A DNA stretch of 20,000 nucleotides from Occultella glacieicola (lineage in GTDB: Bacteria > Actinomycetota > Actinomycetes > Actinomycetales > Beutenbergiaceae). The notes under the pieces were generated by a model. The model searched no databases. It was not told where the DNA came from and saw nothing but the letters and a program-made list of their open reading frames with translations. The stretch is from NCBI RefSeq assembly GCF_004353825.1, contig NZ_SMNA01000010.1:179897-199896 (forward strand), written 5' to 3'. Below are positions 8,694 through 20,000 of this stretch, piece by piece. A program made the position numbers and the translations under genes. Within the stretch, counting starts at the first letter, position 1. The number at the start of each line of letters is the position of its first letter.

Positions 8694-10028
8694 ATGGACA
8701 GGCAGCAGGAGTACGTGCTTCGAGCGATCGAGGAGCGTGACGTCCGGTTCATCCGACTGTGGTTCACCGACGTGCTCGGCGTGCTGAAGTCGGTGGCCGT
8801 GGCCCCGGCCGAGCTCGAGGGCGCGTTCGCCGAGGGCATCGGCTTCGACGGCTCCTCCATCGAGGGCCTGGCCCGCGTCTCCGAGTCCGATCTGGTGGCC
8901 CGCCCGGACCCGTCCACGTTCCAGGTGCTGCCCTGGCGCGGCGGCAAGCACGGCACCGCCCGGATGTTCTGCGACATCCTCACCCCGGACGGTGAGCCGG
9001 CCGCCGCGGACCCGCGCAACGTGCTCAAGCGCGCCCTGGCCAAGGCCGCGGACGCCGGGTTCACCTTCTACACCCACCCCGAGATCGAGTTCTACCTGTT
9101 CCACCCGCAGGAGAACGAGACCGACCCGCTGGTCCCGATCGACACCGCCGGCTACTTCGACCACGTCGCCCGCGGCCAGGGTCACGACTTCCGCCGGGCC
9201 GCGATCACCCTGCTGGAGTCGATGGGAATCTCGGTGGAGTTCTCCCACCACGAGGCCGGCCCCGGGCAGAACGAGATCGACCTGCGCTACGCCGACGCCC
9301 TGTCCACCGCGGACAACATCATGACGTTCCGCTCGGTGGTCAAGGAGGTATCGATCGAGCAGGGCTTCGTCGCCTCGTTCATGCCGAAGCCGATGGCCGG
9401 CCAGCCCGGCTCGGGCATGCACACCCACCTGTCTCTGTTCGAGGGGGACACCAACGTCTTCCACGCCCCGGGCTCGAAGTACGGGCTGTCCACCACGGCC
9501 CGCCAGTTCATGGCCGGGCTGCTGGTGCACTCGGGGGAGATCACCGCCGTCGCCAACCAGTTCGTGAACTCCTACAAGCGCCTGTGGGGCGGGCAGGAGG
9601 CCCCGAGCTACAAGTGCTGGGGCCACAACAACCGGTCCGCGCTGCTGCGGGTGCCGATGTACAAGCCGGGCAAGGGCCAGTCCGCGCGGATCGAGTACCG
9701 CGGCATGGACTCCGCGGCGAACCCCTACCTCGCGCTCGCGGTGCTGCTGCGGGCCGGGCTGAAGGGCATCGAGGAGGGCTACGAACTGCCCGAGGAGGCC
9801 GAGGACGTCGTCTGGGAGCTGTCCGACGGCGAGCGTCGCGCCCTGGGCATCGAGCCGCTGCCGGGCAGCCTGGAGCAGGCCGTGGAGGCCATGGAGCGCT
9901 CCGAGCTGGTCGCGGACACGCTCGGGGAGAAGGTGTTCAACTTCTTCCTCGCGAACAAGCGGCAGGAGTGGACCGACTACCGGGCGCAGGTGACCCCCTA
10001 CGAGCTGGCCCGCGTCGGCCTGATCTGA
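8694..10028 (+). CDS. glnA2: Glutamine synthetase family protein, actinobacterial GlnA2 type
   Basis: N-terminus MDRQQEYVLRAIEERDVRFIRLWFTD, FDGSSIEG, HHEAGPGQNEID, FMPKP..GQPGSGMHTH, NRSALLRVP, RIEYR. It has VVWEL where GlnA1 has the adenylylated NLYDL tyrosine motif, and sits directly upstream of glnE as in mycobacteria. Confidence 0.93.
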   Translation: MDRQQEYVLRAIEERDVRFIRLWFTDVLGVLKSVAVAPAELEGAFAEGIGFDGSSIEGLARVSESDLVARPDPSTFQVLPWRGGKHGTARMFCDILTPDGEPAAADPRNVLKRALAKAADAGFTFYTHPEIEFYLFHPQENETDPLVPIDTAGYFDHVARGQGHDFRRAAITLLESMGISVEFSHHEAGPGQNEIDLRYADALSTADNIMTFRSVVKEVSIEQGFVASFMPKPMAGQPGSGMHTHLSLFEGDTNVFHAPGSKYGLSTTARQFMAGLLVHSGEITAVANQFVNSYKRLWGGQEAPSYKCWGHNNRSALLRVPMYKPGKGQSARIEYRGMDSAANPYLALAVLLRAGLKGIEEGYELPEEAEDVVWELSDGERRALGIEPLPGSLEQAVEAMERSELVADTLGEKVFNFFLANKRQEWTDYRAQVTPYELARVGLI

Positions 10029-10125
10029 GGATGAACCGCTTATTCCCGACGGCGCAGGGTCGCCCGGGCGGTCGGGTCGCCTCGTGCGCGGGTCCAGACG
10101 GGCACGCGTCCGTGAGCGGATCCAG

Positions 10126-13100
10126 GTGAGCAGGGCGCCGTCGCTGAACGCGACGCTGGCGCGCGCCGGCTTCGCCGACGCCGCACGCGCCGCAGACCTG
10201 TGGGAGTCGCCGTTCCTGGCCGGGGTGCTCGCCGCCTGCGAGGCGGGCGCCGCGCCCGACGAGACGCCCGGCACCGCCTCCACGGCCTTGATCGGCGACG
10301 TCGCCCGGGCCGCCGACCCCGACCTCGCGCTGCTCTCCTTGGCCCGCCTCGGCGAGGTCGACCCGGACCGGGCCGCACGGTTGACCCAGGTGCTCGCGGA
10401 TCCGGCCGGCGCCCGGACCAACCTGATCGCCGTGCTCGGGGCGTCGGTGGCCACGGGGGACTGGCTGGTCGCCCACCCGGGCGACGTGGAACTCGTGCTG
10501 CGCCCCCGCGGCGGCGTGGCCGCGGACCCGGCGAACGTGCGCGCGCTGCTGCTCGAATCGGTCGGCGCGGACCCGGACTCGGCCGTTCCGGTCGCGTCCG
10601 TACGCGCCAGCGACGGCTCGCTGAACGAGATGCGCCGTGCCTACCGTCGCGCCCTGCTGACCATCGCCACCGAGGACCTCACCGCCCACGACCCCGAGGC
10701 GTTCCTGCCCGAGGTCGGCGCCGCCCTGGCCAACCTCGCCGCCGCCGCGCTCGAGGCGGCCCTGGCCCTGGCCCGCGCGGAACTGACCGACCACGGCGCC
10801 GGCGTGCGCCTAGCGGTCCTCGGCATGGGCAAGACCGGCGGCCGGGAGCTCAACTACATCTCCGACGTCGACGTCATCTACGTCGCGGAACCGGTCGACG
10901 GGGCCGACGAGGCGGACGCCCTGCGGGTCGGGACGAAACTCGCCGCCACCCTGGCCCGGATGTGCTCGATGCCCGCCCGCGAGCCAGCCCTGTGGGAGGT
11001 GGACGCCGCGCTGCGCCCCGAGGGCAAGAACGGCCCACTGGTGCGCACCCTCGCCTCGCACGTGTCCTACTACGAGCGCTGGGCCAAGACCTGGGAGTTC
11101 CAGGCTTTGCTCAAGGCCCGGCACGTGGCCGGCGACGCGGACCTGTCCGTCGACTACCTCGCCGCGACCCGCCCGATGGTGTGGGAGGCCGCCGGCCGGG
11201 AGAACTTCGTGGAGGACTCCCAGGCGATGCGCCGCCGGGTCGAGGACAACGTGCCACCCGCGGAGGCGGACCGGCAGATCAAGCTCGGCCGCGGCGGCCT
11301 GCGGGACGTCGAGTTCACCGTGCAGCTGTTGCAGCTGGTGCACGGCCGCACCGACGAGACGATCCGGTCCGCGAACACCCTCCGGGCGCTGGCCTCGTTG
11401 TCCGCCGCCGGGTATGTGGGCCGTGACCACGCCGCCGAACTCGCAGCCTGCTACCGGTTCCTGCGCGTGCTCGAGCACCGCGTCCAGCTGTACCGGATGC
11501 GCCGCACCCACCTGCTCCCGACGTCCGAGGATGGCCTGCGCCGCCTGGCCCGCTCCATGGGCCGCAACCCGCTAGGGGACGTGCCCGACGCCAACGCCCT
11601 GATGCAGCGCTGGCAGGCCACCCGCCGCCGGGTCCGCCGCCTGCACGAAGACCTCTACTACCGACCCTTGCTGCCCGCCACCGCGAGCCTGTCCGCCGAC
11701 GAGGTCTCCCTCGACCCCGAGGCCGCGAAAGCCCGCCTGCAGGGCATCGGCTACCGGGACCCGGCCGGCGCGTTGCGGCACATCAAGGTCCTCACCGAGG
11801 GCATCTCCCGCCGCGCCGCCATCCAGCGCCAATTGCTGCCGGTGATGCTCGGCTGGTTCGCCGAGGGCCCCGACCCCGACGGCGGCCTGCTCGCCTTCCG
11901 CAAACTCTCCGAGGAACTCGGCGGCACCCACTGGTACCTGAAGATGCTCCGCGACTCCGGTGCCGCCGCCGAGCGCTTGGCCACGCTGCTGTCCTCCTCG
12001 AAGTATGTGGCCGACTCGCTGATGCGCACCCCCGAGGCCGTCGCCTGGCTCGGCGACGACCGCGAACTCACCCCCCGCACCCCCGAGGCCCTCGCTGCCG
12101 CCATGAACGCGATGCTGCTGCGCCGCGACGACCCCACCGACGCCGCCCAGGCGGTCCGGTTCCTGCGCCGCCGAGAACTCACCCGCGGCGCCATCGGCGA
12201 CGTCCTCGCCGACGTGCCCGTGACCACCTGCGCCGCGGTGATCTCCCCGGCCGCGGACATGGCCCTGCAGGGCGCCGTGCGCATCGCCACCCAGACCGCG
12301 ACGGCGGAACTGGGCCTGGACGCGGACCCGTCCCGATTCCTCGTGGTAGCCATGGGCCGCCTCGGCGGCGCCGAGATCGGCTACGCCTCCGACGCGGACG
12401 TCCTCTTCGTGCACGACCCGCGCGACGGCGCCGACCCGAAGCAGGCCCAGGACTGGGCGGTCCTGGTCGCCACCACGATCGCGTCCCTGCTCGGCAAGAC
12501 CGGCCCCGAGCCGGTGCTGCCAGTGGACTCCCAACTCCGCCCCGAGGGTCGGCAGGGCCCCGTGGTGCGCACCATCGACTCCTACGCCGAGTACTACCAG
12601 CGGTGGGCCCAGGGCTGGGAACGCCAGGCTCTCCTGCGCGCACGTTCGGTGGCCGGCGACAACGACCTGGGGGAGCGGTTCACCTCACTCATCGACCCGC
12701 TGCGCTACCCGGCCGACGGGATCGACCTCGCCGAGATCCGCGAGCTGCGCCGGATCAAGGCGCGGGTGGAGTCCGAGCGCCTGCCCCGCGGTGTGCCGGC
12801 CACCCACCACCTGAAGCTCGGCCGCGGTGGCCTGAGCGACGTGGAGTGGACGGCCCAGTACCTGCAGTTGTGCCACGCGGGCACGACCGAGACCCTGCGA
12901 ACCACGTCGACGCTGGAGGCGCTGGCCGCGGCCCGGGACGCGAACCTGATCACCGACTCCGACGCCGAACACCTCACCGCCGCCTGGGAGCTAGCCACCC
13001 GGCTGCGGAACGCGATCGTGCTCAGCACCGGGCGGGTGAGCGGGCAGAAGGTGGACGTGCTGCCGTCCGAGCGAGGCGAGCTCGCCGGGGTGTCGAGGCT

Positions 13101-13200
13101 GCTCGGCTATCACGCTGGGCACGCCCGGGACCTGGAGGAGGACTGGCTGCGGACAGCACGGCAGGCGCGGGTAGTGATGGAGCAGGTGTTCTTCGGGTGA
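10126..13200 (+). CDS. glnE: Bifunctional glutamine synthetase adenylyltransferase / adenylyl-removing enzyme
   Basis: Two nucleotidyltransferase domains: MGKTGGRELNYISDVDVIY / LRPEGKNG / KLGRGGLRDVEF and MGRLGGAEIGYASDADVLF / LRPEGRQG / KLGRGGLSDVEW. Start uncertain (in-frame GTG 10126 preferred over 10084). Confidence 0.97.
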   Translation: MSRAPSLNATLARAGFADAARAADLWESPFLAGVLAACEAGAAPDETPGTASTALIGDVARAADPDLALLSLARLGEVDPDRAARLTQVLADPAGARTNLIAVLGASVATGDWLVAHPGDVELVLRPRGGVAADPANVRALLLESVGADPDSAVPVASVRASDGSLNEMRRAYRRALLTIATEDLTAHDPEAFLPEVGAALANLAAAALEAALALARAELTDHGAGVRLAVLGMGKTGGRELNYISDVDVIYVAEPVDGADEADALRVGTKLAATLARMCSMPAREPALWEVDAALRPEGKNGPLVRTLASHVSYYERWAKTWEFQALLKARHVAGDADLSVDYLAATRPMVWEAAGRENFVEDSQAMRRRVEDNVPPAEADRQIKLGRGGLRDVEFTVQLLQLVHGRTDETIRSANTLRALASLSAAGYVGRDHAAELAACYRFLRVLEHRVQLYRMRRTHLLPTSEDGLRRLARSMGRNPLGDVPDANALMQRWQATRRRVRRLHEDLYYRPLLPATASLSADEVSLDPEAAKARLQGIGYRDPAGALRHIKVLTEGISRRAAIQRQLLPVMLGWFAEGPDPDGGLLAFRKLSEELGGTHWYLKMLRDSGAAAERLATLLSSSKYVADSLMRTPEAVAWLGDDRELTPRTPEALAAAMNAMLLRRDDPTDAAQAVRFLRRRELTRGAIGDVLADVPVTTCAAVISPAADMALQGAVRIATQTATAELGLDADPSRFLVVAMGRLGGAEIGYASDADVLFVHDPRDGADPKQAQDWAVLVATTIASLLGKTGPEPVLPVDSQLRPEGRQGPVVRTIDSYAEYYQRWAQGWERQALLRARSVAGDNDLGERFTSLIDPLRYPADGIDLAEIRELRRIKARVESERLPRGVPATHHLKLGRGGLSDVEWTAQYLQLCHAGTTETLRTTSTLEALAAARDANLITDSDAEHLTAAWELATRLRNAIVLSTGRVSGQKVDVLPSERGELAGVSRLLGYHAGHARDLEEDWLRTARQARVVMEQVFFG

Positions 13201-13332: not shown

Positions 13333-14208
13333 TCAACGGCGGTCGGTCTTAGCGAAGTAGCCGACGAGCGCGGGCGCAAGCCCGGTTTCGTCAACGAGCT
13401 GCCTCAACGGCATGCGCCCAGCTACAGCAAGTTCAACCGTGCGTTCGCTGCCGCTCTTGTCGTAGGCGGCATACCCGACCGAGACCAGCATCTCGATAAA
13501 TCGGATTGCGGCCTGAGGGTCTTTCGCGGACGCGCCCCGTTGAGTTAGGCCCATATGCTGCGACGCGCCGCCTTCGCACAGCCTTCTAGCGATTTTTCGA
13601 GCGATGTCATAGTGTGGGTGCGCCATTGCGATATAGAGCGGATCCACCGATGCCACTAAAGCGCCACGTGATGCGAGTAACCCCATAGCTCGCTCCTTTG
13701 AGTACTCGACGCCAGACACGCGTAGCGAGAGTCCTGGTTCCAGCGTGCGGAAGTCGGCTCCCGCAAGGAGACTGTCGGTGAAATCCACGTCCAGGAGACT
13801 CGCTGACGAAAAGTCGACGCCAGAAAGGTCCGCTTCGGCGAAAGAGACGCTTTCCAGCCAAGCGCCCGAGAATTGTGACTTACGGAGGTCCAGTCGTGCC
13901 AACTCGCATTCTATGAGAACTGTTGCTCGAAACGAACGCGATAAGGATCCGCCAGTGCCAGCAAAGAAGTCAAGGCGCTCCAATCGGCAGTGGTCAAATG
14001 TGCCGTAGTGTCCGATAAGCGTTGTCAATAGTTCCTCGCTACTTAGGAGCCATCCTTCCTTACGCGCTTTCCATAGCAGCGCGAAAGATGTCGCCAACTC
14101 TCCTGGTTCGAAAGATGCCCATTGCTCGGCGAGGTGTGCGGAACACTCATCTAGGAATGCCGAGGTCTCGCCAGCTAGAAAAGCTTCCATAGTGTCGGTA
14201 ATTCTCAT
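13333..14208 (-). CDS. Pentapeptide-repeat protein with putative C-terminal winged-helix-like domain; possibly the frameshifted C-terminal part of the NACHT protein
   Basis: Repeats LARLD LRKSQ FSGAW LESVS FAEAD LSGVD FSSAS LLDVD FTDSL LAGAD FR. ATGA overlap with the NACHT ORF; visibly AT-richer than glnE. Confidence 0.8.
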   Translation of the reverse strand: MRITDTMEAFLAGETSAFLDECSAHLAEQWASFEPGELATSFALLWKARKEGWLLSSEELLTTLIGHYGTFDHCRLERLDFFAGTGGSLSRSFRATVLIECELARLDLRKSQFSGAWLESVSFAEADLSGVDFSSASLLDVDFTDSLLAGADFRTLEPGLSLRVSGVEYSKERAMGLLASRGALVASVDPLYIAMAHPHYDIARKIARRLCEGGASQHMGLTQRGASAKDPQAAIRFIEMLVSVGYAAYDKSGSERTVELAVAGRMPLRQLVDETGLAPALVGYFAKTDRR

Positions 14209-15851
14209 GGGTTTGGCGCCTTTCCGGCCTGAAGGCTCGACAGTAGGTACTCTACAACCAGGAACTCACGCAAACTGTTGTGCGAGAACCTCCACCCCTC
14301 TTTTCCGCCTGTGGTCACCCTAGTAAGGGTGGCTGACGACCTAAGGTCAGCATAGAGGGTTTGGCGATCCCCTTCCCGTTCAGATTGGGGCAGCCGCTCG
14401 AGTCGGGCCCGAAATTCCAAGTTGATGAGGTCCATGAAATCGGATTCATTAAAGAGCGATATGTCCGAATTGCTGAGGCGGAGAGCCATTCGATGCAGGA
14501 ATCGGCGCCTCGACTCCACTGGCATCCCGGGCGAACGTCGCCGATCGCGCAGCATGAGTTGGTCCACGATCAGGCGGTAGCATTGGTACTCGGTGACGGA
14601 GTCCATGCCACTCGCTGCCGCAGGGCCAGTTGGCTGCTCGGACAACTGGTCGGCCAGATCGACGAGGTAGGAAATGATGACTGGCTTGCCTCCGAGGAGG
14701 CGTGCTCCTTCGTCGCTTGGTCGAGAGACCTTATTCAATAGACCCAGAACTACCGCGCTCTTATCGGGATCACCGGATAACTTGCGGGCCACGAGAGCTT
14801 CAGTCTGGGCGCGATCCAAGTCTTGCAGTCGTCGCTCGCTCCGATCGACGAACTGACGCTCGAAGAGTTGATCGAGTGCAGCCTCCTTAGCATACTCCAC
14901 CGCAGCAATGCCGGTCTCCTCAAGCGATGAGTACAGCGTTTCGAGCACGCGAAGTTCTTCTGCTTCGGAGAAGTAGTTGGGGCGACTGGTGAGAATGCCC
15001 TTGGCACCATGACGTCCCAACTGAGCCAAGGTCTCCAGGCAGACGCGCCGTTCCAGTAGGTGCATGTACTGTGCCATTTCGTCGTATCCGTCAAGGAGTA
15101 GTACGACTCTCCCCCTGCTAATAAGGGACTCGAAGAAGTGTAGGGGCACGTGACTAAGATTGTTGTCGTCGAGGAACTTGTGAAGAAGGGATGCGACGTC
15201 AAATTGCTTGGTGAAATCGCGGAGCTCTATTCGGACGGGAATTGGACAGCGTGGATCGGACTTGTTCTTCTGCATTAGTTCCCGAAGGAGCATCTGGGTG
15301 AGCGCCGTCTTTCCGGTGCCGTACTCACCAACGACTATAAGCCAGCCCGGGCCGGTGGTTTCGTCTTCGACCCAGGAATGGAGAGTTGCTAGCGCCGGCT
15401 CCAACCGAGTGCCAAAGTCGAACTGCGGGGGTTCGTAGACGTCCGCAAGTCGCAGGAGCTCTTGGGCGAGATCGCCCTCGGAGAGGACGGCTCTTTGATA
15501 AGGGTGAAACTTCTCGAAGCGCGACGCGAGGGTTTCGTACGTAAGCAGTTCTACTCTAGCCGGTGCACGCTCGCGAACAGATTGCGTAAAACCGTTGGTG
15601 GAAACGATTACGAACGCGCATCCAGGATGTTGTTCATTGCATGCGTAGTATTTAGTAAGGTCTTTTCCCAGTTTGGTCGCGTCGACCTTTTCAGTGGTTA
15701 CCTCGATAAAGACTGGGCCAGCGAAGGGGTCTCCAATGCGCTCTGCCTTGAGATCAACGCTTGCGCTCTTGACCATTAGTGGTCCCGTGACGTCGTAGCC
15801 GTTAAGTCGAAAGAGCTCCGCGACGGCCGACTCGGCTTCCTCTGGTAGCAT
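14205..15851 (-). CDS. Mrr-like restriction-endonuclease-fold domain fused to a NACHT (STAND) NTPase
   Basis: Walker A GEYGTGKT, Walker B VVLLLDGYDEM, ILTSRPNYF, GKP, winged-helix motif FSHNSLREFL. N-terminus ESAVAELFRLNGYDV...VDLKA...FIEVT...VIVSTNGFT...VELLTYETL. SD AGGAGG precedes ATG 15851. Confidence 0.9.
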   Translation of the reverse strand: MLPEEAESAVAELFRLNGYDVTGPLMVKSASVDLKAERIGDPFAGPVFIEVTTEKVDATKLGKDLTKYYACNEQHPGCAFVIVSTNGFTQSVRERAPARVELLTYETLASRFEKFHPYQRAVLSEGDLAQELLRLADVYEPPQFDFGTRLEPALATLHSWVEDETTGPGWLIVVGEYGTGKTALTQMLLRELMQKNKSDPRCPIPVRIELRDFTKQFDVASLLHKFLDDNNLSHVPLHFFESLISRGRVVLLLDGYDEMAQYMHLLERRVCLETLAQLGRHGAKGILTSRPNYFSEAEELRVLETLYSSLEETGIAAVEYAKEAALDQLFERQFVDRSERRLQDLDRAQTEALVARKLSGDPDKSAVVLGLLNKVSRPSDEGARLLGGKPVIISYLVDLADQLSEQPTGPAAASGMDSVTEYQCYRLIVDQLMLRDRRRSPGMPVESRRRFLHRMALRLSNSDISLFNESDFMDLINLEFRARLERLPQSEREGDRQTLYADLRSSATLTRVTTGGKEGWRFSHNSLREFLVVEYLLSSLQAGKAPNP

Positions 15852-16156
15852 ATTGCCTCCTGGTTATCCGGCGCTCAGTCCAAATGGCGGCGGTCGCATG
15901 CTGTGGTTGACAATGCATACCTTAGCGTCCGGGACGTGTCATGGGGCAGTCACGGTAGCGTGTCTTTGTGGATCTGACGCCGAGCGGGTCAACGGCCTCT
16001 GATGGCTGGGGAATTCGTACGTCGCCCATCCACTTGGCCTGGACGTGCCTGACGCCCCGCCGCTTGACAAGACCTCACAAGTCCTTGCAGCTCGATGGGC
16101 TCGGTGTCCTTCCGAGTTGAGTGCAACAATGTGGAGGAGCGCGGTCGCCGAGTTCT

Positions 16157-16685
16157 CACATTGTCGACCCCGCGGACTTGCTTGGCGCGGCCCGTCCGGA
16201 CCTGACGCGGTCGTTGCTGTTTGCGATGTCTGGTGGGTGGTCTCCACCGATGCCGATGTCCTCGTTGGCGCTGAGTGTGGGGGCCGCTGACCGCAGCGGT
16301 TGGCGCATAGGTGCCGCTACCGGACACCCGAGTCGGCGCTGTCGGTGTGGTGGTCCGCAAACTGCGCCAGGGCACGTGGTTCCCCCAGCGGCTTCTGCAG
16401 CGCTCCGGGCGGGATGAGACCGCGCTGATCACCGTCGCGCCTGACTCTTGTTCGCAAGCGTGTCCAAGATGCCGAATGGACGAGTTGGACAAGACCCTGT
16501 GGATCGATTCACTGCCGCGGTCGTAGTCGTCCCGGAAGACCGCGGACCGCGGACCTGGAAGCGCACGGTGAGCGGTTGCGTCAACGACCTCGAGGTGCGG
16601 CCGTGGCGCCGTTCACGTTGGTGGTCGCGGACGCGCTCACGATATGGATCCGCGAAGGCAGGCACCGGGTTCATCAAAGCCATTG
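16157..16685 (+). pseudogene. Degenerate IS256-family (IS1081-like) transposase remnant, N-terminal part
   Basis: Pieces across shifting frames: HIVDPADLLGAARPDLTRSLL / STDADVLVGAECG* / DTRVGAVGVVVRKLRQGTWFPQRLL...ETALITV...RMDELDKTLWIDSLPRS* / ADLEAHGERLRQRP...PFTLVVADALTIWIREG. These are colinear with actinobacterial IS256 transposases. Stops at 16288-16290 and 16524-16526. Confidence 0.88.
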
Positions 16686-18740
16686 GTCACACCAGGGGGC
16701 GTCCCACTCTGTTGAACCGGTCGACCCGAGGTCTAGGGTCGACCGCGCGACGATGGTGCCGTCGTCGACCGCGAGCCAGAGCAGCAGGCGAGCGGTACCC
16801 TCGAGCGCGGTGAGCGCAACCTCAACGACCTCGGTCACGACGAACGGATCCACGGTCAGCGCCACCGGCTCGATCGCCGACGTCGGTACCGCCTCCGGCC
16901 ACGGTGACAGCAGCGGCGCCCACCCCGCGTGCAGGGTGCCCTGGATCGGGGACGCGCCGTGGTGCGATGCCCGCACCGGCAGTCGCAGGAGCGCCCCCAG
17001 CTCGAGCGCGACGTCTACGCCCGGTTCCACCGGCACCACGTCCAGGATCACCACCGCCTCGGCGTTGACATGTGCGGGGTCGATACCGAGCAGGTCCTTG
17101 CGGGTCCGGTCGGCGTAATACAGGTCGGCCATCTCGTGCTCGACGTCGGTCAGCTCGGTGTAGACGTAGCCGCTGAACGCGTCGTGCCGGCGCAGTTCCT
17201 GGGTCTGCCACTTCAATTGCCAGCCCCGGTCGGTACTGGTGTGCCCAGCACCGTACTCACTGTTCAGGATCGGCAGGGAGGCGCCGATGAGCTCGGGCGT
17301 CGCCCACAGTTGCTTGGTGAGGTGCTCGTCCGCCGCGAGGGTCACGGGGAAGTCCTGCCGGTGTCCGGCCAGGCCTGCTACGAGGTCGGCCCAGGTGGCG
17401 AAGTCGTCGGTGTAGATGTGCCAGTCGACGATGTCGGTCTTCACGTGGGACCAGCCGGAGTCGTCCACGATCGGGCGGGTGGTGCCGAGCGCGGCGAGCA
17501 GGTCGTAGGCGCGGGCCGTCGCCCCCTGGTACTCGGGGCGCGCCTCCACCTGCCAGTCCAGACCCCACTCCTCGTTGTACAGACCCCAGATGACGATCGA
17601 GGGGTGGTTACCGTCCCGGGCGACCATCACCGGGATCTGCGCCTCGAATGCCTCGATCGCCGCCGCGCTGTACCTGCTCGTGCTGGCCGGCTCCTCCCAG
17701 ACGAGCATGCCGAGGGTGTCGGCCCAGTGCAGCCAGCGCGGGTCCTCCAAGCGCAGATGCTTGCGCACCATCGTGTAGCCGGCCTCGCGGGCCAGTTCGA
17801 GGTCGCGGCGGAGCGCGTCGTCGGTCCGGGCAGTGATGCCCGACGGCGGCCAGTAGCCCTGGTCGAGCACAGCCCGCGGGGCGATGCGTACGTCGTTCAG
17901 GAAGATCTTGTCGCCCTTGGTCTCCACGCGTCGCAGGCCAGTGGTCGCCACCACCCGGTCCACGCCGTCCGCACTGTGCACGGTCACCTCGACCCGATAG
18001 AGGTGTGGGTCCGCAGGCGACCAGAGCCTGGGGGAGTCGGGGGTCAGGCTCGCCCGGAACGAGCCGGCGTCGGTCGGCGTGGCGACGAGCGCGCTACCCG
18101 GTCCGCTGTCCGCATCGTCCAGCAGTCGCAGATCTACCCGGGCGTCCGCGGCGTGCGGGCCGGTCACCTCAACCTCGGCCTCGATGCTGGCGAGCGACTC
18201 CCCGCGCAACCGGATGGCTGAGGCCGCGGTCGCGGGCCGCGACTCCAGCCACACGGTCTGCCAGATCCCGGAGGACGGCGTGAACGCGACGCTGTCGTAG
18301 TCGTCGCGGGGCATGGACCGCTGCTTGCTGTGCGGGATGAACCGCTTGTCCAGGGGCGCCTCCACATGCACGCGCAGTTCGTTCGCGCCGTCGATCAGCG
18401 CGTCGGTGACATCGAACTCGAACGGCATGTACCCGCCCTCGTGGCTGCCCACTTCGGTCCTGTTCACGAACACCGTCGCCCGGTGGTGCACCGCGCCGAA
18501 CCGCAAAATGGTGCGGGAGCCGGCCCACGCCGTCGGGACCTCGAACTTGCGACGGTACGTCGCACGATCGAGCCAACCCCGCTCGACGCCGGACGCCCGG
18601 GTCTCCCACGCGAACGGTACGACGATGCGCTCGGGCCAGCCCCCGCCGTCGGGCACGGGAGCGCCGGGCGCGAAGTCCCAGGTGCCGTTCAGGTTCAGCC
18701 AGTGCTCGCGGACCAGGTCCGGGCGCGGGTACTCGGGCCT
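16674..18740 (-). CDS. Glycoside hydrolase family 2 (beta-galactosidase/beta-glucuronidase-like), lacking its native start; probable pseudogene
   Basis: The frame stays open upstream of GTG 18656 as RPEYPRPDLVREHWLNLNGTWDF, a canonical GH2 N-terminus. Motifs LRFGAV, HEGGYMPF, SGIWQTVWLE, WSPADPHLY, LDQGYWP, acid/base WGLYNEEWG, nucleophile NSEYG. There is no ATG/GTG/TTG between the in-frame TAG (18767-18765) and RPEYPRP. Confidence 0.88.
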   Translation of the reverse strand, partial: RPEYPRPDLVREHWLNLNGTWDFAPGAPVPDGGGWPERIVVPFAWETRASGVERGWLDRATYRRKFEVPTAWAGSRTILRFGAVHHRATVFVNRTEVGSHEGGYMPFEFDVTDALIDGANELRVHVEAPLDKRFIPHSKQRSMPRDDYDSVAFTPSSGIWQTVWLESRPATAASAIRLRGESLASIEAEVEVTGPHAADARVDLRLLDDADSGPGSALVATPTDAGSFRASLTPDSPRLWSPADPHLYRVEVTVHSADGVDRVVATTGLRRVETKGDKIFLNDVRIAPRAVLDQGYWPPSGITARTDDALRRDLELAREAGYTMVRKHLRLEDPRWLHWADTLGMLVWEEPASTSRYSAAAIEAFEAQIPVMVARDGNHPSIVIWGLYNEEWGLDWQVEARPEYQGATARAYDLLAALGTTRPIVDDSGWSHVKTDIVDWHIYTDDFATWADLVAGLAGHRQDFPVTLAADEHLTKQLWATPELIGASLPILNSEYGAGHTSTDRGWQLKWQTQELRRHDAFSGYVYTELTDVEHEMADLYYADRTRKDLLGIDPAHVNAEAVVILDVVPVEPGVDVALELGALLRLPVRASHHGASPIQGTLHAGWAPLLSPWPEAVPTSAIEPVALTVDPFVVTEVVEVALTALEGTARLLLWLAVDDGTIVARSTLDLGSTGSTEWDAPWCDQWL

Positions 18741-19881
18741 ATGAGCGCAGGTGATAGCTTGCGACTAGGTCGGGTCGTTGCGACAACTGCGTTTCGAGGC
18801 GACTATCGGCCCAAAGCTCGATGAACGGGAGCCTCCCATCGGCGTTGTGCTTCTCGATAATCGCCACTGCGTCGGTGGTGAAACGCCCGCTTGTCGCGAT
18901 CACCAAAGTCCGAACGACTGGTGGCTCCCAAAGCGGCAGGGTGGCCAACGTGTTCGTGATGTCAGACGGGGCGACAGACTTCGATGTCCAGTGCTTGGCC
19001 TGCATGATGACCCGCTCGGTTCGCGTTGTACCGCCGTCATCCCTGATGACGCGCTCCGCGGACAGATCACGCCCCCGATCAGGTGCGCGGGTCTTCATCA
19101 ACCACTCGACGTTCTGGTAGCTGGGAAAGCCCCGCAGAAGGTCAAACAGCAGGCGCTCGAAGCCGTCGTCGTCAAGGGCAGTCCAGTTGAGGCCGATGCT
19201 TGCACCACCTGCCGGTTTCGCAGATGCAGCGACACCGAGGTCCACTGCTGGCACCGGCAAAGGGTCCGACTCGGAGAGACTCGCGGCTTCAACGTCGGCC
19301 CGTACAGATGGCCAGTCCATCTCGGCGATGTCGTGCCAGTCGTGCCCCTGGCTGAAACGGAGATGCCGGTGAAGATCGCCCCATCGTCCCTTTCTGTCAG
19401 TGGTGTCGCCGAGCAGCCGTTCGATCTCGCTGATCGACTCCTCCACCACTCTTGTTTGGGGATCGTCCATACGATCGGACGAGTCTCGCGCAATAGAATC
19501 TGTGATCTGGGCAAGCGTCGCATTGATCGTCGACACGAGGTCGTCGAGGCGATCGTGGATCGCCCGGCGACGCGACTGAGCGAGCTTGAACCTGTACTCA
19601 TCGAGCTGGTGGCCCGGCTTCTCCAACTCGTTCATGAGGGCGAAGACGGGCTCGCCGATCTCGAAGTAGTCGATGAAGGACTGCCCCGCCTCGTCTATGT
19701 CGGGCAGCTCCTCCGTGACCGTGAACCCGTCGATCGGAGGCAGGCCGGCGAGCAGTGGCGTCCATGCCCGACGTAGATCCTCGTACTCTCGATTCGTACC
19801 CCGCTGAGGGCTCGACGGGATCATCGGCTCCGCACGGTCCCAGATCGCTTGGAGCTTGGCAAGGTTCGCTGCAGAACGGTC
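18739..19881 (-). CDS. Mrr-type restriction endonuclease with long N-terminal helical domain, 5'-interrupted by IS3
   Basis: C-terminal motifs FERLLFDLL...DRGRDL...IMQAKHW...LVIATSGRFT...IELW (Mrr_cat D..QxK). The frame extends upstream of ATG 19824 as DRSAANLAKLQAIWDRAEP right up to the IS end. Confidence 0.85.
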   Translation of the reverse strand, partial: DRSAANLAKLQAIWDRAEPMIPSSPQRGTNREYEDLRRAWTPLLAGLPPIDGFTVTEELPDIDEAGQSFIDYFEIGEPVFALMNELEKPGHQLDEYRFKLAQSRRRAIHDRLDDLVSTINATLAQITDSIARDSSDRMDDPQTRVVEESISEIERLLGDTTDRKGRWGDLHRHLRFSQGHDWHDIAEMDWPSVRADVEAASLSESDPLPVPAVDLGVAASAKPAGGASIGLNWTALDDDGFERLLFDLLRGFPSYQNVEWLMKTRAPDRGRDLSAERVIRDDGGTTRTERVIMQAKHWTSKSVAPSDITNTLATLPLWEPPVVRTLVIATSGRFTTDAVAIIEKHNADGRLPFIELWADSRLETQLSQRPDLVASYHLRS

Positions 19882-20000
19882 GGGACTGCTGCACGAGAAG
19901 GTGACAGTTCCTAGTCACGCCGCCAGGGCGACGTTGTTGGTCATGATGGTCTCGAATTCGATAGGCGTCAATCGACCGAGCCGGGCCTGGCGGCGTCGAC
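19882..20000 (-). mobile_element. Right end of an IS3-family insertion sequence (transposase C-terminus plus terminal repeat); continues beyond the window
   Basis: Minus strand 19998-19915 reads RRRQARLGRLTPIEFETIMTNNVALAA*, typical of actinobacterial IS3 OrfB ends. It is followed by CTGTCACCTTCTCGTGCAGCAGTCCC (19907-19882), the presumed terminal repeat. Confidence 0.88.

Follow-up and report, generated by a model that had tools for sequence, protein, structure and literature searches.

An apparently old gene fission separates the NACHT nuclease and sensor halves of a putative bNACHT defense protein in Occultella glacieicola

Introduction

NLR switches of animals, plants, and bacteria normally keep their NTPase and their sensor on one chain. 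In this study, we analyzed a 20,000-nucleotide stretch of the Occultella glacieicola genome (contig NZ_SMNA01000010.1, positions 179,897 to 199,896; here called the window) in which two adjacent open reading frames (ORFs), ORF1 and ORF2, appear to divide such a switch between two proteins. The closest described systems are the bNACHT proteins, which are often solitary and antiphage; a hyperactive member was rescued by a nuclease-site mutation (Kibby et al., bioRxiv 10.1101/2022.07.19.500537). The portions of that preprint considered here list restriction endonuclease (REase) effectors, name pentapeptide repeats as a sensor type, and apply the term "hybrids" to repeats followed by an extra small C-terminal domain.

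A second point of reference is the 2026 survey of STAND proteins (Lee et al. 2026, PMC13581612). In the portions of this survey considered here, the attachment of a conserved effector of nuclease fold to a NACHT module serves as a criterion for a defense function, and C-terminal regions of fewer than 400 amino acids were left out of sensor clustering. The word "pentapeptide" has 0 occurrences in the available text and 7 supplements. For Avs7/Dsr1, its methods refer to "split proteins" but give no detail, and split STANDs are therefore not unheard of.

Results

ORF1 and ORF2 match the two halves of one fused family

A search with ORF1 yielded 326 homologs at E<=1e-10 among 8000 candidates; the length and residue counts given here cover the 120 that were listed. 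In 100 of these 120, the protein is at least 800 amino acids long, and nearly all of the long homologs are annotated with pentapeptide repeats. A profile of stand-alone ORF2 proteins aligned to residues 558-851 of one fused protein (probability 99.7). By homology, then, ORF1 and ORF2 are two halves of one family of approximately 855 amino acids, and the fused product suspected in an earlier sequence-only reading of this DNA has natural counterparts.

To place the junction, we used the FSHN motif of the NACHT winged helix as a landmark. The 95 loci that we fetched, which are partly redundant, comprise 56 fused genes, 7 whose frame is still open beyond the junction when the contig ends, and 3 that are split at the position seen in the window; another 4 are truncated or simply short, and in the last 25, which are distant NACHTs or lie on cut contigs, the motif is missing. 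The ten top-scoring rows all stop 27 residues past FSHN; one of them is ORF1 itself, and the other nine are relatives with 57-83% identity. Split relatives include Cellulomonas flavigena and Micromonospora yasonensis (names as in the sources). Stand-alone ORF2 relatives of 285-301 amino acids exist, and the same start methionine is used in 10 of 11 of these partners, the eleventh being annotated six residues later. In fused proteins, this column is a methionine in only 3 of 99.

At locus L027, the frame at 10001 onward continues for 727 residues past FSHN, versus approximately 325 in the family, which suggests read-through or an additional domain at the C terminus. Upstream of the member at L015 there is a long open frame. 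The member at L017:10001-11080, located after a carboxyl transferase gene, matches residues 9-363 only.

The split appears to be old and kept by selection

Four split junctions could be compared at the DNA level, and they fall into three geometries: ATGA (twice), TGATG, and TAG-CG-ATG, with offsets of -1, -1, +2, and +5. A purine run lies 8-13 nt upstream of the ORF2 ATG at all four loci, with duplex energies of -3.9 to -7.2 kcal/mol computed without a shuffled control. The proportion of synonymous differences (pS) is 0.72-0.82 in all 6 pairs of split loci, so that synonymous sites are near saturation, whereas the proportion of nonsynonymous differences (pN) in the same pairs is far lower, at 0.15-0.31 for ORF1 and 0.24-0.45 for ORF2. 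The sequences show that both genes are intact and under purifying selection and that ORF2 has its own conserved start. They also indicate that the split is old and has been kept by selection in one lineage. This old conserved fission, which was absent from the sequence-only reading, is in our view the most unusual point about the locus.

A tree of the NACHT region, built without duplicate rows and without 3 proteins that do not contain the motif, has a clade of 11 (support 100/100). Ten of its members are the split rows, and the eleventh is P0124, a partial sequence of the fused form. Moderate support (90/77) makes P0124 the sister of split P0009, and a single split clade is compatible with the data (p-AU 0.24). 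A further protein, P0072 (556 amino acids; protein record only), stops at the split clade's column but groups with fused proteins in another clade, and it may be an independent fission.

The cut coincides with a domain border in the model, and the halves are predicted to redock

In a structure alignment, the end of ORF1 is equivalent to NLRC4 residue 473, which corresponds to the start of the second helical domain (HD2). The model thus places the cut at the border between the winged-helix domain (WHD) and HD2. A predicted ORF1-ORF2 complex scored 0.67, whereas the best of 3 controls scored 0.00; of 157 solved complexes, 116 reach the mark used for docking, as do 2 of 215 mismatched pairs. At least 89% of contacts recur between separate runs, and the predicted local distance difference test (pLDDT) score of the partners is at least 86. 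In the predicted interface, ORF1 525-546 packs into ORF2 1-44 as a hydrophobic helix bundle in which V533, L536, L537, and L540 meet M7, F10, and L44. Among split members, interface columns are more conserved than their neighbors in both ORF2 (0.74 versus 0.58) and ORF1 (0.81 versus 0.75).

ORF1 combines a restriction-type nuclease fold with a NACHT module

The sequence-only reading had proposed a REase-fold N terminus and a complete NACHT module, and both held up. Pfam matched NACHT to ORF1 171-311 (E 1.9e-9, above cut-off; PF05729, 38 bits versus a cut-off of 26.7), and residues 113-548 of the ORF1 model (pLDDT 87.5) align to NLRC4 100-473 (Z 22.4; root-mean-square deviation [rmsd] 4.1; 339 aligned). 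GEYGTGKT (175-182) and DGYDE (254-258) are near-invariant in 120 sequences, so that a Walker A and a Walker B of the D[GAS]hDE type are present. H524 is likely the equivalent of NLRC4 H443. Avs4 and Avs3 were among the Foldseek matches of ORF1.

The N-terminal domain resembles AF1548 (Z 14.1; rmsd 2.4; 112 aligned) and the Pyrococcus repair endonuclease 2vld (Z 12.7; rmsd 2.3; 101 aligned), and residues 1-110 match Mrr_cat in Pfam (E 5e-4; 20.6 bits versus a cut-off of 21). The catalytic-looking motif reads D33..E50-x-T52: the usual lysine two residues after E50 is absent, and its place is taken by T52 in 120 of 120 sequences. D33, E50, K60, D64, and K67 are likewise invariant in all 120 nuclease domains, and K60 and K67 are possible stand-ins for the missing catalytic lysine. 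The third acidic or polar residue alternates between two positions. E/Q7 occurs with S31 in 11 of the 120, and the other 109 have E/Q31 without E, Q, or D at position 7; ORF1 uses position 7, and most fused relatives use position 31. This swap is seen in the split clade and again, outside that clade, in the fused protein P0107. We read the compensating third acid as a sign that the predicted active site is maintained.

ORF2 carries a short acidic beta-helix and a conserved basic winged helix

Pentapeptide repeats were matched by Pfam at ORF2 93-154. In register, they form approximately 13 regular units (89-153) after one degenerate turn, slightly more than the roughly 10 counted from the letters alone. 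In the ORF2 model (pLDDT 95.8), the repeat aligns to known pentapeptide beta-helices with Z ~12. Across 127 sequences, the beta-helix is 85-93 amino acids long, lies between two domains, and is always net acidic (-1 to -12, median -6). The C-terminal domain that had been read as a winged helix-turn-helix does match winged helices of the MarR/PadR type over residues 187-276 (best Z 8.9; rmsd 4.2; 84 aligned; a Z of ~8 is middling). It is never net acidic, with a median charge of +5.

Conservation is highest on this second domain. Its residues listed in Table 1 are near-invariant, the most conserved patch of ORF2 lies on it, and mean entropy is 2.37 for the repeat versus 2.03 for the winged helix; conserved repeat positions are mostly inward-facing. 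The conserved basic winged helix is thus a likelier sensor than the beta-helix. MfpA and Qnr are long dimeric rods, and the short capped beta-helix of ORF2 fits a spacer better than a rod of that architecture. A word search for the winged-helix region among longer proteins found 0 of 741 candidates, a result uninformative about other fusions since fused relatives exist. In the Atlas, the region had no feature match, and its structure matches were limited to unnamed and MarR/PadR clusters; a viral fold search returned generic pentapeptide and winged-helix matches only.

The pair lies at a variable site downstream of glnE

ORF1 and ORF2 sit directly downstream of a glnE-like gene and, as had been noticed earlier, are AT-richer than their host: their GC content is 0.56-0.57 versus 0.71 across the contig, and GC at third codon positions is 0.63 (ORF1) and 0.60 (ORF2) versus 0.94-0.97 for glnA and glnE. 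This composition marks the pair as foreign and, by this measure, horizontally acquired. Neither att-like repeats nor a sigma-70 promoter was found above chance, and a second copy of the system was not found in the same genome.

In 3 of 3 congeners (L102, L103, and L104), the DNA becomes divergent at no more than 30 bases from the glnE stop, and the cargo is different in each. PADLOC matches at E<=1e-5 were obtained for 13 of 17 chosen ORFs of this cargo. The strong matches were PglW (BREX-type; 1.9e-132), a type IIG restriction-modification protein (1.8e-246) accompanied by a DruE-like helicase (1.1e-84), and DRT9 (1.5e-177), and the cargo also includes an NsnA-like protein and UvrD, HNH, and OLD-like genes. 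The 3' end of glnE is a defense hotspot in this genus. The sequence-only reading is thus supported in its layout of effector, NACHT, and sensor, in the foreign composition, in the intact motifs, and in the placement of the pair at such a hotspot. The unnamed cargo ORFs L102:3713-4579, L102:4548-6020, L104:5319-5993, and L104:14228-14998 are candidate further defense genes.

The family is rare and taxonomically scattered. It was not found in 60 relatives, and no further carriers were found in 35 family genomes, 400 order genomes, or 274 other genomes of another carrier's genus. No relatives were found in 72,556 plasmids or 50,697 phages, and the split-clade motif occurred in 0 viral contigs. 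At L030/L054, one fused member has a frame that is broken ahead of FSHN and a lambda-type portal gene nearby, possibly within a prophage; the other member is followed by Mrr and SIR2-HerA genes.

Elsewhere in the window, a 361-amino-acid protein is encoded at 18739-19824 on the minus strand (GC 0.62). The N-terminal part of this protein is helical and its C-terminal part matches Mrr_cat (E 3.5e-6, above cut-off). It had no match in PADLOC and is probably encoded by a second nuclease-type defense gene of the same cargo. Between the two nuclease genes lies a glycoside hydrolase family 2 gene (16674-18656, minus strand) with near-host composition. The last 119 bases of the window (19882-20000) are identical to the end of contig C13, and similar stretches occur on C18 and C2. 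This stretch is a repeat at which the assembly breaks, and the island may therefore continue.

Table 1. Features of the ORF1-ORF2 locus in window coordinates
Feature	Position	Strand	Basis
ORF1, 548 aa (restriction-fold nuclease domain, NACHT module NBD/HD1/WHD, one docking helix)	14205..15851	-	Pfam, model
ORF2, 291 aa (HD2-like helices, pentapeptide beta-helix, linker, winged helix)	13333..14208	-	Pfam, model
ATGA stop-start overlap of ORF1 and ORF2, conserved fission point	14205..14208	-	sequence, relatives' junctions
AGGAGG ribosome-binding site of ORF1, ATG 4 nt further on	15856..15861	-	read in sequence
GGAAAGG purine run within ORF1 end, candidate internal ribosome-binding site of ORF2, 10 nt before ORF2 ATG	14219..14225	-	
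ORF1 Mrr-like PD-(D/E)xK-fold domain (1-115)	15507..15851	-	Pfam, structure comparison, alignment
ORF1 Walker A GEYGTGKT (175-182); G175, G178, G180, K181 invariant in 120	15306..15329	-	alignment
ORF1 Walker B with NACHT signature, VLLLDGYDE (250-258)	15078..15104	-	alignment; signature D[GAS]hDE from bNACHT preprint
ORF1 FSHN motif of NACHT winged helix; H524 invariant	14277..14288	-	alignment
Last ORF1 helix (525-546), predicted to pack into ORF2 N-terminal helices	14214..14279	-	complex model
ORF2 HD2-like helical domain (1-66); M7, F10, L44, W46 nearly invariant	14011..14208	-	model, alignment
ORF2 short pentapeptide beta-helix (~69-156), net acidic	13741..14004	-	Pfam, structure comparison, alignment
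ORF2 C-terminal winged helix (187-276); K205, Q217, G220, Q223, R224, G225, G264, R265 conserved	13381..13650	-	structure comparison, alignment
glnE-like host gene; 3' end is border of variable defense cargo site (context, outside the system)	10084..13200	+	

Discussion

We consider it fairly probable that ORF1 and ORF2 form a bNACHT protein of the single-gene type divided over two chains, and that its function is most likely that of an abortive antiphage nuclease. The system is probably defensive: other defense genes follow glnE in 3 of 3 congeners, its distribution is patchy, and bNACHT proteins are often antiphage. By analogy with NLR and Avs biology, stop-start coupling would supply matched amounts of the two chains, and the complex at rest would be ADP-bound and closed. 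As modeled, the last helix of ORF1 would insert into the first helices of ORF2 and rebuild the fused fold. A phage-derived ligand, either nucleic acid or an acidic protein surface, would bind ORF2; its most likely site is the winged helix, which is conserved and basic, and the fixed-length beta-helix would act as a spacer. Nucleotide exchange would then lead to oligomerization and bring the nuclease domains together, and these would degrade DNA so that the infected cell is killed or arrested.

Several observations weigh against this reading. The nuclease motif lacks its usual lysine (T52), and the Pfam cut-off for Mrr_cat is missed by 0.4 bit. Fused relatives make up most of the alignments behind the complex model, and the two halves of a split gene usually pass such a test; the model therefore represents a feasible reconstitution of the fused fold, not binding. 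The ligand and the sensing surface are guessed from conservation and charge, and the split clade has lost several arginines from its winged helix. Finally, the expectation that homologs would colocalize with defense genes was not clearly borne out in our sample. Around 30 family loci we took the 230 ORFs that lie at a distance of up to 5 kb, and compared them with 150 of 153 ORFs from 20 actinobacterial control stretches, using our own gene calling and single hidden Markov model matches to PADLOC at E<=1e-25. Matches occurred at 4 of 30 family loci and 3 of 20 control stretches (p=1.0), which is no clear enrichment; without generic kinase and ABC ATPase matches, the counts were 3 of 30 and 0 of 20 (p=0.27). 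The 121 nearest ORFs at the 30 loci are mostly housekeeping genes by Pfam, with defense-type domains at 3 loci, and no conserved partner gene was seen among these neighbors.

ORF2 might instead be a detachable inhibitor. ORF1 alone would then be self-activating and would be freed by phage-driven shut-off, proteolysis, or capture of ORF2, in the manner of a toxin-antitoxin-like guard. HD2 and the sensor help to hold NLRs closed, and the cut lies at just this border. The retention of the split over saturating synonymous divergence and the stop of P0072, from another clade, at the same column point the same way. Set against these, the hydrophobic helix bundle in the model suggests stable cofolding, and a toxin-first order with coupling gives no excess of inhibitor. 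Fused P0124 lies inside or beside the split clade, so both forms work, and P0072 is known as a protein only. We regard this alternative as unlikely. A broader version, which we offer as a speculation that is doubtful but worth stating, is that the HD2-plus-sensor half acts in trans both as a brake that can detach and as a receptor, with a winged helix on a pentapeptide arm sensing phage nucleic acid, and that the WHD/HD2 joint may have broken repeatedly. Were this true, the locus would exemplify a transition from an NLR to a toxin-antitoxin system and offer a natural chassis with swappable sensors.

A second alternative, which concerns the sensing step only, is the idea from the sequence-only reading that the beta-helix is a DNA mimic of the Qnr/MfpA kind that lures a DNA-binding protein of the phage and thereby sets off the NACHT switch. 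The acidity of the beta-helix in 127 of 127 sequences agrees with this proposal. The helix is of short, fixed length, however, with its approximately 13 repeats capped by domains at both ends, and ORF2 scores far under the family cut-offs for Qnr (24.1 bits versus 240) and MfpA (19.3 bits versus 360). The inward-facing conserved positions and higher entropy of the repeat, with the conserved patch on the winged helix, likewise speak against a decoy, and we consider it rather improbable.

The target might also be plasmids or other DNA, or the pair might be a regulator with an operator-binding winged helix, in which case it would not be antiphage. This role would fit the lack of clear island enrichment and the resemblance of the C-terminal fold to MarR/PadR regulators. 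Conjugation, recombinase, transposase, SRAP, or portal genes adjoin 8 of 30 loci (counted without a control), which also favors it. It is harder to reconcile with the rarity and scattered taxonomy of the family and the defense hotspot at this site. In addition, the combination of NACHT with a conserved effector of nuclease fold counts as a mark of defense in the portions of the STAND survey considered here (PMC13581612), and a role outside phage defense seems to us improbable.

A programmed -1 frameshift joining both ORFs into a fused protein is very improbable: ORF2 is in the -1 frame at 4 of 4 loci and an A-AAG tetramer shortly precedes the stop in 2 of 4, but there is no shared slippery site, ATGA and TGATG are ordinary coupling overlaps with the same frame, and the methionine start is conserved. 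Most relatives are fused, as a recent break, pseudogene, or assembly error would predict, but that explanation is hardly credible given full-length frames, and for the split clade as a whole a recent break is ruled out by the shared stop column at 57-83% identity, the differing junctions, and pN well below pS.

If ORF1 and ORF2 do form a two-chain bNACHT switch, a lineage that has long kept two chains would allow clean tests of autoinhibition, with either half alone or with sensor swaps, without an engineered cut. Also of interest is the family's nuclease site, which is atypical and has an acidic residue that migrates. At approximately 300 amino acids, the sensor type of the family falls under the size limit stated in the portions of the 2026 STAND sensor survey considered here (PMC13581612).

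Comparison with known systems

No full-length match to a named system was found in PADLOC 2.0, NCBIfam, or PDB; PADLOC and NCBIfam gave only weak partial matches. No Avs model matched at E<=0.1 in PADLOC 2.0, which predates later Avs families, and a family-profile search of solved structures (37 sequences) found pentapeptide proteins only. A search of full-text literature, a coverage that leaves most subscription papers outside, found no account of this family or its fission. The view that the layout lacks a characterized precedent therefore stands as regards a named full-length match, but not as regards the sensor, given that pentapeptide and hybrid sensors are listed in the portions of the bNACHT preprint considered here.

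Individual parts of the system have more distant likenesses. The nuclease domain shares with Mrr-like PD-(D/E)xK endonucleases (AF1548, NucS-type) the fold and a D..E core in which D33 and E50 are the acidic ligands. It differs in having E-x-T in place of E/Q-x-K, in the invariant K60, D64, and K67 on the next helix, and in the alternating position of its third acidic residue. The repeat of ORF2 forms a right-handed quadrilateral beta-helix like that of MfpA/Qnr (Z 10-12) and is net negative, and it also resembles the beta-helix of Hailong HalA (Z 7.7; rmsd 3.6; 122 aligned). Unlike these proteins, ORF2 has a much shorter repeat set between domains and no channel domain, and it falls far below the family cut-offs.

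Among multidomain systems, CARD-NLR/LypABC is likewise a multigene NLR-like system that is rare and, in the case described, located outside defense islands. In the portions of that report considered here, separate protease and effector genes are joined by CARD contacts (PMC13236601), whereas the present locus has effector and NACHT on one chain and a detached sensor half. Avs1-24 share the effector-STAND-sensor logic and have nuclease effectors that are active on oligomerization; as far as the survey portions considered here describe them, their sensors are mostly TPR-like and at least 400 amino acids long (Lee et al. 2026, PMC13581612), whereas ORF2 is a 291-amino-acid protein with a beta-helix and a winged helix.

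The likeness is greatest to bNACHT proteins, for which the preprint portions considered here describe a D[GAS]hDE Walker B, a WHD histidine, an N-terminal REase effector, and usually solitary genes (bioRxiv 10.1101/2022.07.19.500537). The succession of nucleotide-binding domain, first helical domain, and WHD, the WHD histidine, and the N-terminal effector are all present in ORF1. The difference is that the sensor is encoded by a separate gene here and in the split clade, and by the same chain in the fused relatives. The domain legend of the proteins tested in the preprint does not include pentapeptide repeats, and "split" is absent from its main text, although its supplements may list the fused family. 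A NACHT protein with a pentapeptide sensor thus belongs to a cataloged class, and the new element is the old fission that detaches the sensor.

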